This document shows positions 120 through 27,996 of a DNA stretch of 28,411 bases, one piece after another. This stretch comes from a virus. The stretch spans positions 1 through 28,411 of the IMG/VR virus record IMGVR_UViG_3300045988_034311, one strand, 5' to 3'. The stretch's first letter is position 1; the number at the start of each line of letters is the position of its first letter. A program made the position numbers and the translations under genes. A model generated the notes under the pieces. It saw nothing but the letters and a program-made list of their open reading frames with translations. It did no database searches and had not been told where the DNA came from.

Positions 120-151
120 TATAATATATCACATATAGTGGGATTAGACAA
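113..151 (-). promoter_or_regulatory. Leftward sigma-A-type promoter, member of the conserved early promoter family
   Basis: Minus strand reads TTGTCT (151..146), a 17-nt spacer, TG-A-TATATT (131..123), then ATATATATCA. The 21-mer TGATATATATAATATATCACA (113..133) recurs at 24670..24690 and 27956..27976. Confidence 0.5.
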
Positions 152-1010
152 TCAACGGCACGCCATCGCCGCCATCTTCGGGGGAAAATTCACGCTCCAA
201 CGCTTCCACTCCGCCGGTGGCACCCCAATACGCACGCCTCGCACGCAGAACGGTCGCCACGTCGGCGGACACGGAATCGGGAAGCCTATGGGCCATCCAA
301 TTCGACAGCTGCGCTTCGCTGCGCTGCTCCTGCCTATGGCCCCTCCAATTAATCGGGTTGGCCAGCCACACGGGCAGAGTCCGCACGTACTGCAACGGCG
401 TACCCTCGCACGATTCCACGAAACGTTTCGCCGCTTTCATAAGCGCGTCGGCCCCAACCTCGTCGTAAGCCGTATTGAAATACATGAGGAATTCGTTAGA
501 GACTCTGCATTTCTTCGGCCACAAGTCCATAAGCGCCTTGAGCGTTTCCGATGAATGGCAGGCGACTGTGTTTTTTTCTTCTTCGCGCGGGGATTGTTCT
601 TGGGTTTTGTTCTTATGGGTATTGTTAGTCAAAAGCAGGTTTTGGGGTGGGTCAAAAGCAGGTTTTGAGGGGTCAAAAGCAGGTTTTGGGGTCGGTGCAG
701 GGTCATAACCCTGTTTTGGGGTGGGCTTCCACAGCGAGACGTGATACCGGTTGGCCCTGCCATCGGACTTGACCCGTCGAATGTACCCCAGTTGCTCAAG
801 CCTGTTGAGGCTCTTGGATACCGTGGGCTGCGAGCAACGCGCGATCTTCGCCAGCCGCTCCAGACTCGGCCAGCATACGCCGGTGTTGTCGGCGTGACGT
901 ATCAGCGCCATGTACACCAGCAGGTCGTAGCCGCCCAACCGGTCATCATCCACCGCCCAATTCGGCAGCATCGAAAAACCCGAGTTCTGTGCTATACTCG
1001 TATCGGACAT
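144..1010 (-). CDS. Replication-initiator-like protein with an N-terminal winged HTH (HTH_36-like), a Pro-rich repeat linker and a C-terminal domain of unknown function
   Basis: 288-aa ORF with RBS AAAGGTGGA upstream of the ATG. The N-terminus (LPNWAVDD...YDLLVYMALIRHADNTGVCWPSLERLAKIARCSQPTVSKSLNRLEQLGYIRR) looks like phage or plasmid replication wHTH proteins. The linker is encoded by the iteron array. Confidence 0.7.
   Translation of the reverse strand: MSDTSIAQNSGFSMLPNWAVDDDRLGGYDLLVYMALIRHADNTGVCWPSLERLAKIARCSQPTVSKSLNRLEQLGYIRRVKSDGRANRYHVSLWKPTPKQGYDPAPTPKPAFDPSKPAFDPPQNLLLTNNTHKNKTQEQSPREEEKNTVACHSSETLKALMDLWPKKCRVSNEFLMYFNTAYDEVGADALMKAAKRFVESCEGTPLQYVRTLPVWLANPINWRGHRQEQRSEAQLSNWMAHRLPDSVSADVATVLRARRAYWGATGGVEALEREFSPEDGGDGVPLIV
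628..725. repeat. Iteron-like direct repeats (candidate origin of replication) inside the initiator gene
   Basis: gtcaaaagcaggttttgggg at 628..647, gtcaaaagcaggttttgagg at 651..670, gtcaaaagcaggttttgggg at 672..691, and a degenerate copy gtcataaccctgttttgggg at about 701..720. Spacings are 23, 21 and 29 bp. A T-rich stretch at 566..627 flanks the array. Confidence 0.6.
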
Positions 1011-1027
1011 ATTTCCACCTTTCTGTT

Positions 1028-1060
1028 AGCGCCTCCCTTCAGTTTTCTCGGGGAGGCGCT
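1028..1060 (-). promoter_or_regulatory. Perfect 10-bp-stem hairpin in the predicted 5' UTR of the initiator gene
   Basis: agcgcctccc (1028..1037) pairs with gggaggcgct (1051..1060) around a 13-nt loop. The arms carry an SD-like GGGAGG and its complement CCTCCC. It lies 18 nt upstream of the start codon region. Confidence 0.45.
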
Positions 1061-1111
1061 TGCTTTATTCCTGTTCGTATTTTATTTAATGTTGGTGAGC
1101 CCGGTTCAGTG

Positions 1112-1151
1112 CTCATATATATATTATATAGCTAGCATATGCTAGTTGCAA
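1112..1151 (-). promoter_or_regulatory. Leftward promoter for the initiator gene
   Basis: Minus strand reads TTGCAA (1151..1146), a 17-nt spacer, TATAAT (1128..1123), then ATATATATGA. It follows the same layout as the three other leftward promoters. Confidence 0.5.
1132..1145. promoter_or_regulatory. Perfect 14-bp palindrome ctagcatatgctag, candidate operator
   Basis: The sequence is self-complementary. It fills the 17-nt spacer between -35 and -10 of the leftward promoter and abuts the shared TTGCAA hexamer. Confidence 0.45.
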
Positions 1152-1174
1152 TCAAGGATAATCTGAGGTATATT
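1146..1174 (+). promoter_or_regulatory. Rightward promoter, possibly producing a leaderless mRNA for the 1181 gene
   Basis: TTGCAA (1146..1151), a 17-nt spacer, then TATATT (1169..1174). The ATG at 1181 lies 7 nt after the -10. TTGCAA is its own reverse complement and is also the -35 of the leftward promoter. Confidence 0.4.
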
Positions 1175-1180
1175 AAAATC

Positions 1181-1363
1181 ATGTACGCTAAAGACTTCAT
1201 CGCAACGACGGAGCAGTACGCGGAACGCTGGCACCTCAACGTGCAAACGGTACGCAGATACTGCCGTGAGAAACGACTGCCATACATCAAGGTAGGCAAC
1301 CGCTACTACTTCAACCCCAACATCACACCACTACCAGTAGGAGAAACGATCACCGATGAATGA
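1181..1363 (+). CDS. Small excisionase/MerR-type HTH DNA-binding protein (HTH_17-like)
   Basis: MYAKDFIATTEQYAERWHLNVQTVRRYCREKRLPYIKVGNRYYF matches the Xis-type HTH pattern. It is the first rightward gene. The start could instead be ATG 1139. Confidence 0.6.
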   Translation: MYAKDFIATTEQYAERWHLNVQTVRRYCREKRLPYIKVGNRYYFNPNITPLPVGETITDE

Positions 1364-10777: not shown

Positions 10778-10821
10778 AGGCCCTATCTCCTACAATGGGA
10801 GGTAGGGCCTAACTCATTTTT
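10778..10821 (+). terminator. Rho-independent terminator after the capsid module
   Basis: aggccctatctcc (10778..10790) pairs with ggaggtagggcct (10798..10810), giving a 13-bp stem with one G-U. The loop is 7 nt and is followed by aactcattttt. Confidence 0.7.
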
Positions 10822-14277: not shown

Positions 14278-16322
14278 TGGCCGACTCAACACTGACTTTA
14301 GACGCTGAGATCAACACTGGCGATTGGAACGCTGGCGTCAAAGATATTCAGTCCGGGAGCCGTCAGATCGAACAGTCCGCGCGGCAGGCCGATGAAGCGT
14401 TGGGTGACGTTGACAAGTCTGCTAGCAAGTCTTCCAGCGGTTTCGGTAAGTTCGGTGCCGCCGCCGGTGCCGTTGGCGGTCTCGTGTCTTCGGGTATCGG
14501 CATGGCAGTGGACGCCATCGCCGATCTTACCGGGGATATCGTGGAGGCGTCAGACTCGGCGGACAAGTTCAAAAGCACGTTGAACTTCGCCGGACTGGAT
14601 ACTGGGACTATTGACGCGCTCACCGCCAGCACTCAGGCATACGCCGACCAGACCGTGTATTCCATCAGTGATATTCGCAATGTAACAGCCCAGCTTGCCG
14701 CGAACGGAGTGCAGGGTTTCGACCAGTTGGCTGAAGCTGCTGGCAATTTGAACGCGGTCGCCGGCGGTTCGGCGGACACGTTCAGCTCGGTGGGTATGGT
14801 GCTTACGCAGACCGCTGGCGCTGGCAAGCTCACCACGGAGAACTGGAACCAGTTGGCCGACGCCATCCCCGGTGCATCCGGCAAGCTTCAGGAAGCGATG
14901 CTGAAGAATGGCGCTTACACTGGAAACTTCCGTGACGCGCTGGAGAAGGGCGAGATCAGCGCGGATGAATTCAACCAAGCCATTATGGACTTGGGTATGA
15001 CTGACGCCGCGAAAGAGGCCGCTACCAGCACCAGCACCATTGAAGGCGCGATGGGCAACCTCGAAGCGTCCGTGGTGGGCGTGGGTACGACGATTCTTGA
15101 CCAGTTCAAAGGCCCGTTGACATCGGGCATTAGTATGGTGGCTCAGGGTATCAGCGGGCTTAGTGGCGTGTTTACCGGTCTGGTGCAAACTATCGGACCG
15201 ATTCTCTCGCAGATCGGCACAACGTTCCAGACTGCTTTCGCGCCCATCGCAACGATGATTACCACGCAACTGCTCCCCGCTTTGCAGCCGCTTATGGCAG
15301 CGTTGCAGAATCTCGGGAGCGCGATCATGCCCGTCATCATGACCGCGATCCAGACTATCGCGCCCGTGTTGGCAACCGTGGTGAGCAACGTCATCCAGAC
15401 CATGACAGTCATATCCACGGCAGTGACTCCCGTAATTAACGGTATCGCCAGTGTGATTCAGGCCGTGCTGCCAGTCATCCAGTCAGTCTTCCAGACATGG
15501 GGAGCCAGTATTCAGGGCGTCATCAACGCGGTTTTCCCGTTCATCCAGACCGTCGTAACTTCTGTGATGAACGTAGTCAACGCGATTATCAGTACCGTTC
15601 TGGCGGCTATCAACGGCGACTGGTCTGGCGTTTGGGAAGGAATTCAGAATATCGTTTCTAGCGTTTGGGACGGTATCCAGAATATTGTTTCTGGTGCCAT
15701 CAATGAAGTGTCAGGCGTCATATCGAGCGTGCTGAGCGGCATCAGCAGTATTTTCAGCAGTGTGTGGAACGGTATCAAGGGAGCAGTAAGCGGCGCGTGG
15801 AGTGGTATCACTAGTGCCGTCAGCAGTGGCGTAAGCTCGATGATGAATTTTATTACCAGTATCCCGAGCCGTATCATGGGCGTGTTCAGCGGAGCCGGAT
15901 CATGGTTGCTGAGCGCCGGGCGTAACATTATTCAGGGTCTTATTAATGGCATTACGAACGCCATCGGCGGTGCCATCTCAGCAGTCAAGAACGCTGTTGG
16001 CGGTATCATCGACGGCGCTAAGAGCCTGCTGGGCATCGCGTCACCGTCGAAAGTGTTCGACCGTGAGATCGGTCGGATGATTCCGGCTGGTCTTGGCCGT
16101 GGCGTATCGGAGAACGTGCGTGCGGCCACTCGTCCGGTGGAGGACATGGTGAATTCGCTTCTGCCGTCGTCCATCGTGACTCCAATGCCGGTCATGTCTA
16201 ACCCGGTGCCCATGAACGCGACTAGTGGCCCGCGTGTGAGCGCGCCTATCACGGTTAACGCGCTTGACCCGAACGCGGCGGCACAAGAAACCGTTAGGGT
16301 GATTAATTTCCACTACGTGTGA
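14277..16322 (+). CDS. Tape measure protein
   Basis: 681 aa, Ala/Gly/Ser/Val-rich with long hydrophobic repeat stretches. It is in the canonical position. RBS GAAGGA lies 6 nt before ATG 14277 (GTG 14274 is also possible). Confidence 0.85.
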   Translation: MADSTLTLDAEINTGDWNAGVKDIQSGSRQIEQSARQADEALGDVDKSASKSSSGFGKFGAAAGAVGGLVSSGIGMAVDAIADLTGDIVEASDSADKFKSTLNFAGLDTGTIDALTASTQAYADQTVYSISDIRNVTAQLAANGVQGFDQLAEAAGNLNAVAGGSADTFSSVGMVLTQTAGAGKLTTENWNQLADAIPGASGKLQEAMLKNGAYTGNFRDALEKGEISADEFNQAIMDLGMTDAAKEAATSTSTIEGAMGNLEASVVGVGTTILDQFKGPLTSGISMVAQGISGLSGVFTGLVQTIGPILSQIGTTFQTAFAPIATMITTQLLPALQPLMAALQNLGSAIMPVIMTAIQTIAPVLATVVSNVIQTMTVISTAVTPVINGIASVIQAVLPVIQSVFQTWGASIQGVINAVFPFIQTVVTSVMNVVNAIISTVLAAINGDWSGVWEGIQNIVSSVWDGIQNIVSGAINEVSGVISSVLSGISSIFSSVWNGIKGAVSGAWSGITSAVSSGVSSMMNFITSIPSRIMGVFSGAGSWLLSAGRNIIQGLINGITNAIGGAISAVKNAVGGIIDGAKSLLGIASPSKVFDREIGRMIPAGLGRGVSENVRAATRPVEDMVNSLLPSSIVTPMPVMSNPVPMNATSGPRVSAPITVNALDPNAAAQETVRVINFHYV

Positions 16323-23650: not shown

Positions 23651-23980
23651 TCAATTACTCAGCAAGTATTCTCGGTTCCGGTATTCGCTGAGTACGGGAA
23701 CGGTTTCGGGGTGATCGTTGTACGCGCTGACCAGCCAGCCGTTCTCATACGATTCCTTGGGATGCTGGTGGATACGCCCGTGGCATCCCATTGTTCCCGA
23801 ACCGCAGACGGTAATAAGATTGCTGGGTAGGTTCAACCCGTCCCAAGCGTGGGAGCGCATACGCCTGTGGTGCAGGTTGAACGCGGAGGCGCTTAACGTT
23901 TTCCCGCAGATGAAACATCTGCCGTGGTCACGGTGGAATACCTTTATACGGGTTTCGGTATCCGGGTCTGTTTTGCTCAT
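23651..23980 (-). CDS. HNH endonuclease
   Basis: RCFICGK...LHHRRMRS...NLITVCGSGTMGCHGRIH carries the HNH and zinc-ligand pattern. 109 aa. Confidence 0.8.
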   Translation of the reverse strand: MSKTDPDTETRIKVFHRDHGRCFICGKTLSASAFNLHHRRMRSHAWDGLNLPSNLITVCGSGTMGCHGRIHQHPKESYENGWLVSAYNDHPETVPVLSEYRNREYLLSN

Positions 23981-24320: not shown

Positions 24321-24650
24321 CTAGTCTTTGGTCAGGATGTCATAGCCTAGGTGTTCGGCTAGTCGCATCCGGTATTGTTTTTGTGGTTTGCGGCGTCCGG
24401 TTTCCCACATGGCTACCACGTTTGGGCCTGCGACGCCGATTCGTTCGGCTAGTTCCGCTTGTGAGTACCCGTGGCGTAGCCGCCAGTATTTGATGCACTG
24501 GCCGATGGTCACCCTGTCGCTGATGTTCGCGTAGTCAATGGGAATGTTGCCGACGGTTTGCCGTGTGAAGAACTGGCCGGTCTGACTGTCCTGTTCCACT
24601 GTGACTTCTTGACCGTTGATTACGGTTTTGATCTTGTTTTGCTTACGCAT
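24321..24650 (-). CDS. XRE-family HTH transcriptional regulator (Cro/CI-type) with a ~50-aa N-terminal extension
   Basis: IKYWRLRHGYSQAELAERIGVAGPNVVAMWETGRRKP is a classic HTH_3 motif. RBS GGGAGG. It is preceded by the best copy of the promoter/palindrome motif. Confidence 0.8.
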   Translation of the reverse strand: MRKQNKIKTVINGQEVTVEQDSQTGQFFTRQTVGNIPIDYANISDRVTIGQCIKYWRLRHGYSQAELAERIGVAGPNVVAMWETGRRKPQKQYRMRLAEHLGYDILTKD

Positions 24651-24665
24651 GTTTCACCTCCCTAC

Positions 24666-24708
24666 AATGTGATATATATATTATATCACATTGTTTGTGT
24701 TTCGCCAA
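24666..24708 (-). promoter_or_regulatory. Leftward promoter with a 27-bp palindrome (aatgtgatata-tatat-tatatcacatt)
   Basis: Minus strand reads TTGGCG (24708..24703), a 17-nt spacer, TG-A-TATAAT (24688..24680), then ATATATATCA. The perfect 11-bp inverted arms are 24666..24676 and 24682..24692. Confidence 0.55.
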
Positions 24709-27955: not shown

Positions 27956-27996
27956 TGATATATAAAGTATATCACATGTTGTGTGTGATATTACAA
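27956..27996 (-). promoter_or_regulatory. Leftward promoter upstream of erf, member of the conserved family
   Basis: Minus strand reads TTGTAA (27996..27991), a 19-nt spacer, TG-A-TATACT (27974..27966), then TTATATATCA. Extra TGTGAT half-sites lie at 27951..27956 and 27984..27989. Confidence 0.45.

Follow-up and report, generated by a model that had tools for sequence, protein, structure and literature searches.

In phage lambda, the PR and PRM promoters start 82 bp apart, have separate -35 elements and are accompanied by three conserved operators bound by CI and Cro. Overlapping divergent promoters are already established elsewhere, as are bidirectional promoters that share a -10 element: the PM and PCR promoters of EcoRV overlap and bind polymerase in a mutually exclusive manner (PMC5333194), the Pc and Pr promoters of pLS20 are overlapping divergent sigma-A promoters that show exclusion (PMC4207663), and bidirectional promoters of the Warman/Grainger class share a -10, with starts 10, 18 or 23 bp apart and separate outer -35 elements (PMC12825309). 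In mycobacteriophage BPs, a 12-bp palindromic operator lies between the -35 and -10 of PR (PMC4557955). Here we analyse positions 1011-1180 of the IMG/VR record IMGVR_UViG_3300045988_034311, a complete virus record taken at its full length of 28,411 nt (the window), in which this segment is the sole divergent intergenic region. Judging from its sequence and that of its relatives, the segment is probably an early promoter hub in which two promoters would compete through one shared hexamer, TTGCAA, with a leaderless gene on the right, setting a ratio between the two directions rather than acting as a bistable switch.

Two predicted promoters on one palindromic -35 element

An initiator-protein scan of viral contigs returned 70 related loci (81-95% protein identity), and the intergenic region from 66 relatives was aligned with that of the window, giving 67 sequences; base frequencies were computed over the 55 distinct hub sequences found in these 67 phages. 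The promoter elements are the following.

1146..1151, both strands: palindromic -35 TTGCAA, used by both predicted promoters, with its dyad centre between 1148 and 1149; invariant in 67 of 67 sequences
1169..1174, + strand: rightward -10 TATATT, behind a 17-nt spacer (1152-1168); spacing 17 in 67 of 67
1123..1128, − strand: leftward -10 TATAAT, behind a 17-nt spacer (1129-1145); identical in 65 of 67
1113..1122, − strand: ATATATATGA block immediately past the leftward -10, with the predicted leftward start inside it at about 1116-1114
1096..1115, − strand: small hairpin, UGAGC...GCUCA, seen in the leader fold where the leftward transcript is predicted to begin

Because TTGCAA is its own reverse complement, a promoter arises in each direction once a -10 stands 17 bp away on that side. 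The original prediction had proposed such back-to-back promoters on one palindromic -35; every coordinate that it gave proved exact on re-reading the sequence, and the conservation of the elements among the 67 sequences backs the arrangement itself. Both promoters have the sigma-70/sigma-A form (a -35 like TTGACA and a -10 like TATAAT, 16-18 bp apart), and their core elements overlap in that 1146-1151 is the -35 of each. A generic promoter scan recovered the two of them (leftward TTGCAA-17-TATAAT, 10 of 12 matches; rightward TTGCAA-17-TATATT, 9 of 12), and 1146-1174 is the only good intergenic promoter-like site on the + strand of the whole genome.

Variation around the hub is distributed unevenly. 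Reading leftward, ATTATA lies exactly 17 nt from the hexamer in 65 of the 67 sequences, the exceptions being one ATTGTA (TACAAT) and one 16-nt spacer, and the rightward -10 is TATAYT throughout apart from a single TATAGT, with T1, A2, T3, A4 and T6 invariant and T, C or G at position 5. Averaged over positions, the major base reaches a frequency of 1.00 in the -35 and 0.98 in either -10; the spacers are looser, with 0.89 on the right and 0.77 on the left, where the hub is least conserved. For both promoters, hexamers and spacing are thus under selection relative to the neighbouring sequence, clearly beyond chance. The leader past the leftward -10 carries several indels among relatives while both spacings stay fixed, and the fixed spacings are therefore not a mere reflection of general similarity. 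From these comparisons we conclude with good confidence that two back-to-back promoters on one palindromic -35 are real. The rightward spacer (1152-1168) is more conserved than the leftward one, T1152, A1160, T1162, T1164 and G1168 being invariant and A1161 and A1166 nearly so, and the small hairpin at 1096-1115 reads TGAGC/GCTCA in the window and TGCGC/GCGCA in most relatives, a change in both arms as judged by eye.

Recurrence of the 17/17 geometry in unrelated phages

The pattern ATTATA-N17-TTGCAA-N17-TATAYT occurs in at least 116 stretches of the viral collection, as against 21 stretches when the same hexamers are set at 21/21 and 17 at 14/14. For the 17/17 pattern 80 loci were listed, 32 of which are relatives of this phage; among the matches listed, 38 are distinct and unrelated, and 11 of these 38 have a Shine-Dalgarno (SD) sequence with an open reading frame (ORF) start on both sides within 70 nt, compared with 0 of 19 in the 21/21 control and 0.4% of random windows. 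Since the geometry is enriched over spacing controls and accompanied by divergent gene starts on both sides, we conclude that on this sequence evidence it recurs as a design. Seven unrelated viral contigs (L094, L107, L139, L140, L146, L167 and L169) carry the hub beside a gene of about 52 aa for a ribbon-helix-helix protein (an RHH_3 regulator in several hubs), with a TnpB-like (OrfB_IS605), GIY-YIG or other gene on the opposite side and leaders of only 17-40 nt each.

In the mechanism that we propose, two housekeeping-sigma promoters would stand back to back with the six common base pairs TTGCAA as their -35. The rightward promoter would yield a leaderless mRNA for a 60-aa HTH protein, SSB and the remaining right arm, and the leftward promoter, starting near 1116, would place a leader of about 106 nt ahead of the gene for a lambda-O-like initiator. 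Sigma region 4 of two holoenzymes would be unable to fill the same six base pairs, so that each template would fire one way at a time, and two strong early promoters competing on each template would set a ratio between the arms without producing a bistable switch. Mutual exclusion of two polymerases at one -35 is something that we infer on sound physical grounds, with precedents.

Several points weigh against this account. The relatives are close (rep, the initiator gene, is 81-95% identical), and part of the conservation reflects shared ancestry. The cultured phage BlindUri1 (L207, MT006234.1) has no shared -35, its two promoters lying about 600 bp apart, and sharing of the -35 is consequently not ancestral to all bifidobacterial relatives. 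In E. coli, bidirectional promoters compete only when strong (PMC12825309), and sharing may have no regulatory effect.

These points leave some room, though a minor share of the probability, for a plainer explanation: both promoters would be real and the shared -35 a by-product of genome compaction, with occupancy too low for interference and the two arms uncoupled. The genome is compact, BlindUri1 manages without sharing, and in E. coli none of five bidirectional promoters tested competed at basal activity (PMC12825309). TTGCAA also serves promoters that are not shared: most relatives use it as the -35 of a further leftward promoter, and BlindUri1 does so at its leftward promoter. It appears to be the preferred -35 of this phage family. 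Compaction, however, does not readily account for an exact 17/17 symmetry kept in 65-67 of 67 sequences despite indels nearby, or for a geometry that exceeds its spacing controls at least 3-fold in unrelated phages and is tied there to divergent gene starts; early phage promoters, moreover, are usually strong, and it is at strong promoters that competition shows. Competition at the shared hexamer remains our preferred reading of the hub.

The rightward transcript is probably leaderless

The first gene of the right arm begins directly beyond the rightward -10.

1181..1363, + strand: predicted leaderless gene for a 60-aa HTH_17 (MerR/excisionase-type) DNA-binding protein, the first right-arm gene (Pfam HTH_17, E = 2.5e-8)

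Six nucleotides (AAAATC) separate the rightward -10 from ATG 1181 in the window, and the corresponding distance in relatives is 6 nt, or 7 nt in six sequences. No SD precedes the ATG in the window or in relatives, where the gap is A/T-rich. An upstream ATG at 1139 is in frame in the window, but relatives have a TAA between its equivalent and that of ATG 1181; the HTH_17 domain runs from residue 9, and the protein has no internal Met. The start codon is accordingly placed at 1181, at the spacing of a leaderless gene. That the rightward mRNA would lack a leader had been part of the original prediction, and the short distance, the missing SD, the in-frame stop in relatives and the same arrangement in BlindUri1 all speak for it. 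The proposal that the HTH_17 gene is leaderless, with a transcript starting at or beside A1181, is thus well supported by sequence comparison. Leaderless transcripts account for about 15% of mapped start sites in Bifidobacterium pseudolongum (PMC4782308). In two relatives (L032 and L035) 9 nt are duplicated in tandem where the gene begins (MYAKYAKDY...), and small insertions therefore seem to be tolerated at the leaderless 5' end.

In BlindUri1, an unannotated 56-aa ORF at 15922-16092 is a homologue of the HTH_17 gene (pairwise E = 7e-9) in the same position; an extended -10, TGtTATAGT, ends 6 nt before its ATG, and no SD is present. By these features the ORF is a leaderless gene missed in the public record. 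For annotation, the comparison fixes the start of the leaderless HTH gene in this phage and adds a homologous gene that is absent from the BlindUri1 record. The GC-rich gap of about 600 bp between the divergent promoters of BlindUri1 (about 15305-15830) looks structured, contains no annotated gene and ends in a strong + strand terminator (15785-15815); an Rfam search of this intergenic region gave nothing credible, and the gap may be an unknown non-coding RNA.

A role for the HTH_17 protein as an AlpA/Q-like antiterminator was considered and dropped, the protein having only 60 residues and matching HTH_17 rather than Phage_AlpA. AlpA has a site in the promoter spacer and an RNA-exit-channel segment, with cited residues to at least 142 (PMC9371919).

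The spacer palindrome and the question of a switch

Between the shared -35 and the leftward -10 lies a further symmetric element.

1132..1145, leftward spacer: perfect 14-bp palindrome CTAGCATATGCTAG, coordinates confirmed, probably not a conserved operator

The original prediction had taken this palindrome for an operator and the hub for a compact genetic switch, in which a phage DNA-binding protein on the 14-bp palindrome would pick one of two mutually exclusive operons. The palindrome does occupy the classic operator position, the spacer operator of BPs provides a precedent (PMC4557955), the phage encodes several small HTH proteins, and most class-A relatives keep TAGCA-nn-TGCTA. The alignment nevertheless argues against an operator. 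Among the 67 sequences the perfect 14-mer is found in the window alone, and five relatives keep a perfect 12-mer palindrome; the main class mostly has TAGCA-ca-TGCTA with 5+5 arms, about 18 of the 67 spacers carry TATYACGRCGACACCRC, which lacks dyad symmetry, and two relatives have a direct repeat of ATGCTAC instead. Substitutions, which are common in this poorly conserved spacer, strike one arm without a matching change in the other. The genome has no second copy of CTAGCATATGCTAG, and its count of perfect 14-bp palindromes (1 observed, 1.9 +/- 1.2 in shuffles) is at chance level. HTH_17 variants show no covariation with spacer class, one identical HTH_17 sequence occurring with all three spacer types, and no conserved operator was found in the hub among the 67 sequences. 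Given spacer operators elsewhere the operator idea is a reasonable one, but the sequence evidence here speaks against it, and the palindrome is probably incidental.

The gene content points the same way. Rep, Erf and exonuclease on the left and SSB and RusA on the right, which should be needed together, are split over both arms, and nothing suggests bistability. The left gene of the pair encodes a replication initiator, and the marks of a lambda-type switch, an integrase and conserved hub operators, are missing. No integrase was found among any ORF of the genome in Pfam, PHROG and further protein searches, and no CI-sized repressor gene was found in the genome, nor a CI-like repressor gene at the hub, in agreement with the remark in the original prediction that neither was recognisable. 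Altogether a switch seems very unlikely. Because both arms carry replication or recombination genes and no conserved operator is present, we read the hub as a ratio-setting or merely compact device rather than a bistable one.

Strongly conserved operator-like palindromes do occur in this phage family, at other leftward promoters and not in the hub. The leftward -10 of the hub is followed by ATATATAT(G)A, and a -10 with a ATATATAT(C/G)A block is also found at the leftward promoters near 128 and 24685, with a variant near 27971; this common block is further support for the leftward promoter of the hub. At three other leftward promoters (24664-24694, 113-133 and 27956-27976) a long palindrome, TGTGATATA..TATATCACA, extends over an extended -10, most clearly directly upstream of the XRE gene (24650..24321); the promoter after rep in most relatives, TTGCAA-18-TATAAT, bears the same TGTGATATA..TATATCACA palindrome. 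From its distribution, TGTGATATA..TATATCACA looks like a conserved operator of the family, and the XRE protein is possibly its binder.

A hairpin at 1028-1060 most likely terminates + strand transcription

The leftward leader contains a conserved hairpin that faces the initiator gene, and a promoter-like site lies within the first codons of that gene.

144..1010, − strand: lambda-O-like replication initiator gene (rep), the first left-arm gene (Pfam HTH_36, E = 4e-17; PHROG replication initiation/O-like families, E = 4e-26)
1015..1020, − strand: SD AGGTGG of the initiator gene, read from the sequence, its position conserved in the alignment
1028..1070, + strand: GC-rich hairpin (1028-1060; 10-bp stem 1028-1037/1051-1060) with a T-rich tail (1061-1070), read as an intrinsic terminator
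971..998, + strand: candidate antisense promoter from the promoter scan, TCGAAA, 16 nt, TGcTATACT (extended -10), within rep codons 5-13; predicted start about 1005

The original prediction of a leftward leader (here about 106 nt) with a hairpin holds up, and the hairpin is conserved, but for its function a + strand terminator fits better than a leader element. In 63 of 67 sequences the + strand folds more stably, the means being -20.2 kcal/mol against -16.8 for the − strand. In the 51 distinct hairpins, pairs 1-8 are almost always Watson-Crick, and all exceptions in pairs 1-11 are G.U on the + strand (89 cells, versus 0 A.C). Compensated changes occur in the stem (CCTCY/GGAGG to CCTTT/AAAGG; C-G to T-A at pair 8). 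A T-rich tail, T(A/G)CTTTATT or TACTTGTTTTT, follows on the + strand in 67 of 67, including three sequences with a large deletion just beyond, and one relative with a 3-nt loop still has stem and tail, suggesting that the loop is dispensable. The hairpin thus has the covarying GC-rich stem of 8-11 bp and the U-rich tail of an intrinsic terminator on the + strand; a generic scan overlooked it since its loop exceeds 8 nt. Because G.U pairs, fold stability and T-run all favour the + strand, the hairpin at 1028-1060 is most likely an intrinsic terminator of + strand RNA.

We regard it as doubtful that the hairpin instead acts in the leftward mRNA, stabilising the message or tuning translation of the initiator, with no + strand terminator at all. 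It lies in the predicted leader 8 nt upstream of the SD, its distance from the start codon does not vary, and its eight core pairs are Watson-Crick on both strands; the leader as a whole also has a good fold (z = -4.2). In the leader, however, the 89 non-Watson-Crick cells of pairs 1-11 would all be C.A mismatches, and a function there leaves unexplained the greater stability of the + strand fold, the T-rich tail that trails the stem on the + strand only and the retention of stem and tail where the loop has shrunk to 3 nt.

A candidate antisense RNA over the initiator start

If the hairpin is a + strand terminator, the RNA that it ends could be a short one. The extended -10 TGcTATACT (990-998) lies within initiator codons 5-7, 30 nt upstream of the hairpin, and has four copies in the genome, of which the other three belong to leftward promoters. 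Its TG and -10 positions 1, 2, 3 and 6 are invariant in 67 of 67 sequences, and the first base of codon 7 varies (Ala/Thr/Ser/Pro) while the two bases that form the TG never do; each of codons 5-7 is a minor one (joint probability 0.0015). An RNA from about 1005 to about 1068 would cover the initiator start codon (1008-1010) and SD (1015-1020) by complementarity, and it is predicted to fold well (z = -5.5). On the strength of the strand asymmetry, the T-tail, the minor codons and the invariant TG, we give something close to an even chance to the proposal that the hairpin ends a countertranscript of about 65 nt covering the initiator SD and start codon. Such an RNA, started from the extended -10 in the first initiator codons, would pair with the SD and start codon in the manner of plasmid copy-control RNAs. 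The initiator start codon (1008-1010 and equivalents) is ATG in 39 of 67 sequences and GTG in 28 of 67, a change that falls within the region with which the predicted antisense RNA would pair. An Rfam search of the hub gave nothing credible.

Three points limit this evidence. Synonymous variation is low across rep, which makes the invariance of the antisense -10 weak evidence; AT-rich rare codons close to the start of a gene can be explained in other known ways; and where a pyrimidine-rich loop adjoins a G-run, composition by itself would put T opposite G at pairs 9 and 11. What speaks for a + strand terminator would also apply equally if the hairpin served no dedicated small RNA and only insulated the hub from stray antisense transcription of the left arm, arising for example at the symmetric AT-rich leftward promoters. 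Weak + strand promoter-like sites do lie opposite the palindromic leftward promoters, and symmetric -10 regions often fire in both directions (PMC12825309). But relatives do not conserve the best upstream + strand site (112-139), and the extended -10 made of three minor codons, 30 nt upstream, puts a transcript exactly over the initiator ribosome site; we consider pure insulation unlikely. The site at 112-139 was also assessed as a feeder of the terminator and, being unconserved, ruled out. The short countertranscript remains the source that we tentatively favour for the RNA ending at the hairpin.

Genome organization and probable host

The first and last 119 bases of the window are identical, and the window is therefore taken as a circular assembly with 28,292 unique bases. 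The left arm, on the − strand, runs from 1010 through position 1 and ends at 23651, and encodes the lambda-O-like initiator with internal iterons, Erf, a YqaJ/RecE-type exonuclease, the XRE protein and an HNH endonuclease. The right arm, on the + strand, extends from 1181 to about 23500, with genes for the 60-aa HTH_17 protein, SSB, DUF3310, a MerR-like HTH protein, RusA, terminase, two fusion proteins (portal and protease-capsid), tail proteins and endolysin.

About 628-720: iterons inside the initiator gene, repeats visible in the sequence

From 1146 to 23641 on the + strand, intergenic DNA holds no other convincing sigma-70-type promoter, and a strong terminator follows the capsid gene at 10778-10810. 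The tail and lysis genes might be transcribed by read-through, with antitermination or from a non-canonical late promoter.

The nearest cultured phages are the Bifidobacterium asteroides phages BlindUri1 and BlindBasel1, with TerL 50% identical, and the best cellular match of the endolysin comes from Alloscardovia (Bifidobacteriaceae). These two matches point to a host that is likely actinobacterial, and probably one of the Bifidobacteriaceae. The virus appears to be a small gut phage without integrase or lysogeny genes. No prophage relatives were found in the bacterial genomes scanned with the initiator protein, and among cultured phages neither the initiator nor the HTH_17 protein has a close relative. 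For more distant hubs, a large protein search gave only close initiator relatives (78-92% identity).

Comparison with known systems

The hub resembles the EcoRV and pLS20 pairs in having two divergent sigma-70/sigma-A promoters whose core elements overlap, so that one polymerase excludes the other. In pLS20, however, each promoter has its -10 where the other has its -35, whereas here the -35 alone is common. The EcoRV promoters overlap partially and the C protein arbitrates between them; the hub is perfectly symmetric and has no conserved site for an arbitrating protein. Like lambda PR and PRM, it consists of back-to-back early promoters, one of which gives a (here predicted) leaderless transcript (the cI mRNA in lambda), and an O-like initiator with the origin inside its gene adjoins the promoters. 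Unlike lambda, it has no conserved operators, CI-like repressor gene or integrase.

Short antisense RNAs that arise near or inside the 5' end of their target, cover its ribosome site and end at an intrinsic terminator include RNAII of pMV158, RNAI of ColE2, sar of P22 and oop of lambda. The predicted hub RNA has the same layout. It differs from these countertranscripts in being a prediction only and in its target, which would be the O-like initiator of a phage and not a plasmid Rep or antirepressor, and it shows no sequence or Rfam similarity to known countertranscripts.

Closer to the host group, OR of the actinobacterial phage BPs resembles the leftward spacer: in both, a 12-14-bp palindrome sits in the -35/-10 spacer of an early promoter (PMC4557955). 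A known repressor binds the BPs site, and related sites occur at other places in the BPs genome, whereas CTAGCATATGCTAG is unique and unconserved.

Our literature searches found no description of a class with a shared palindromic -35 or of a symmetric pair sharing only the -35. A very abundant family of human-gut phages has kept the shared -35 layout fixed, and the layout recurs in unrelated phages far above spacing controls. Regulator-free competition between polymerases can be put to the test here in a simple natural system. It is conceivable, although we hold this broader proposal with considerable reserve, that shared -35 promoters form a distinct recurrent phage class in which operons are coupled by competition, with a countertranscript throttling the initiator in this phage. 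The second part, if true, would mean that a virulent phage with a lambda-O-like origin controls its replication in the style of a plasmid. For the first part, the nearest relation is the shared -10 class of bidirectional promoters, to which the hub is likened by a symmetry that lets one short element serve both directions. It stands apart from that class as its mirror image, with the -35 common, the -10 elements separate (1123-1128 and 1169-1174) and predicted starts about 65 bp apart. If competition does operate here, the shared -10 class would have a counterpart in which each template admits one polymerase and two operons are coupled without any regulator.

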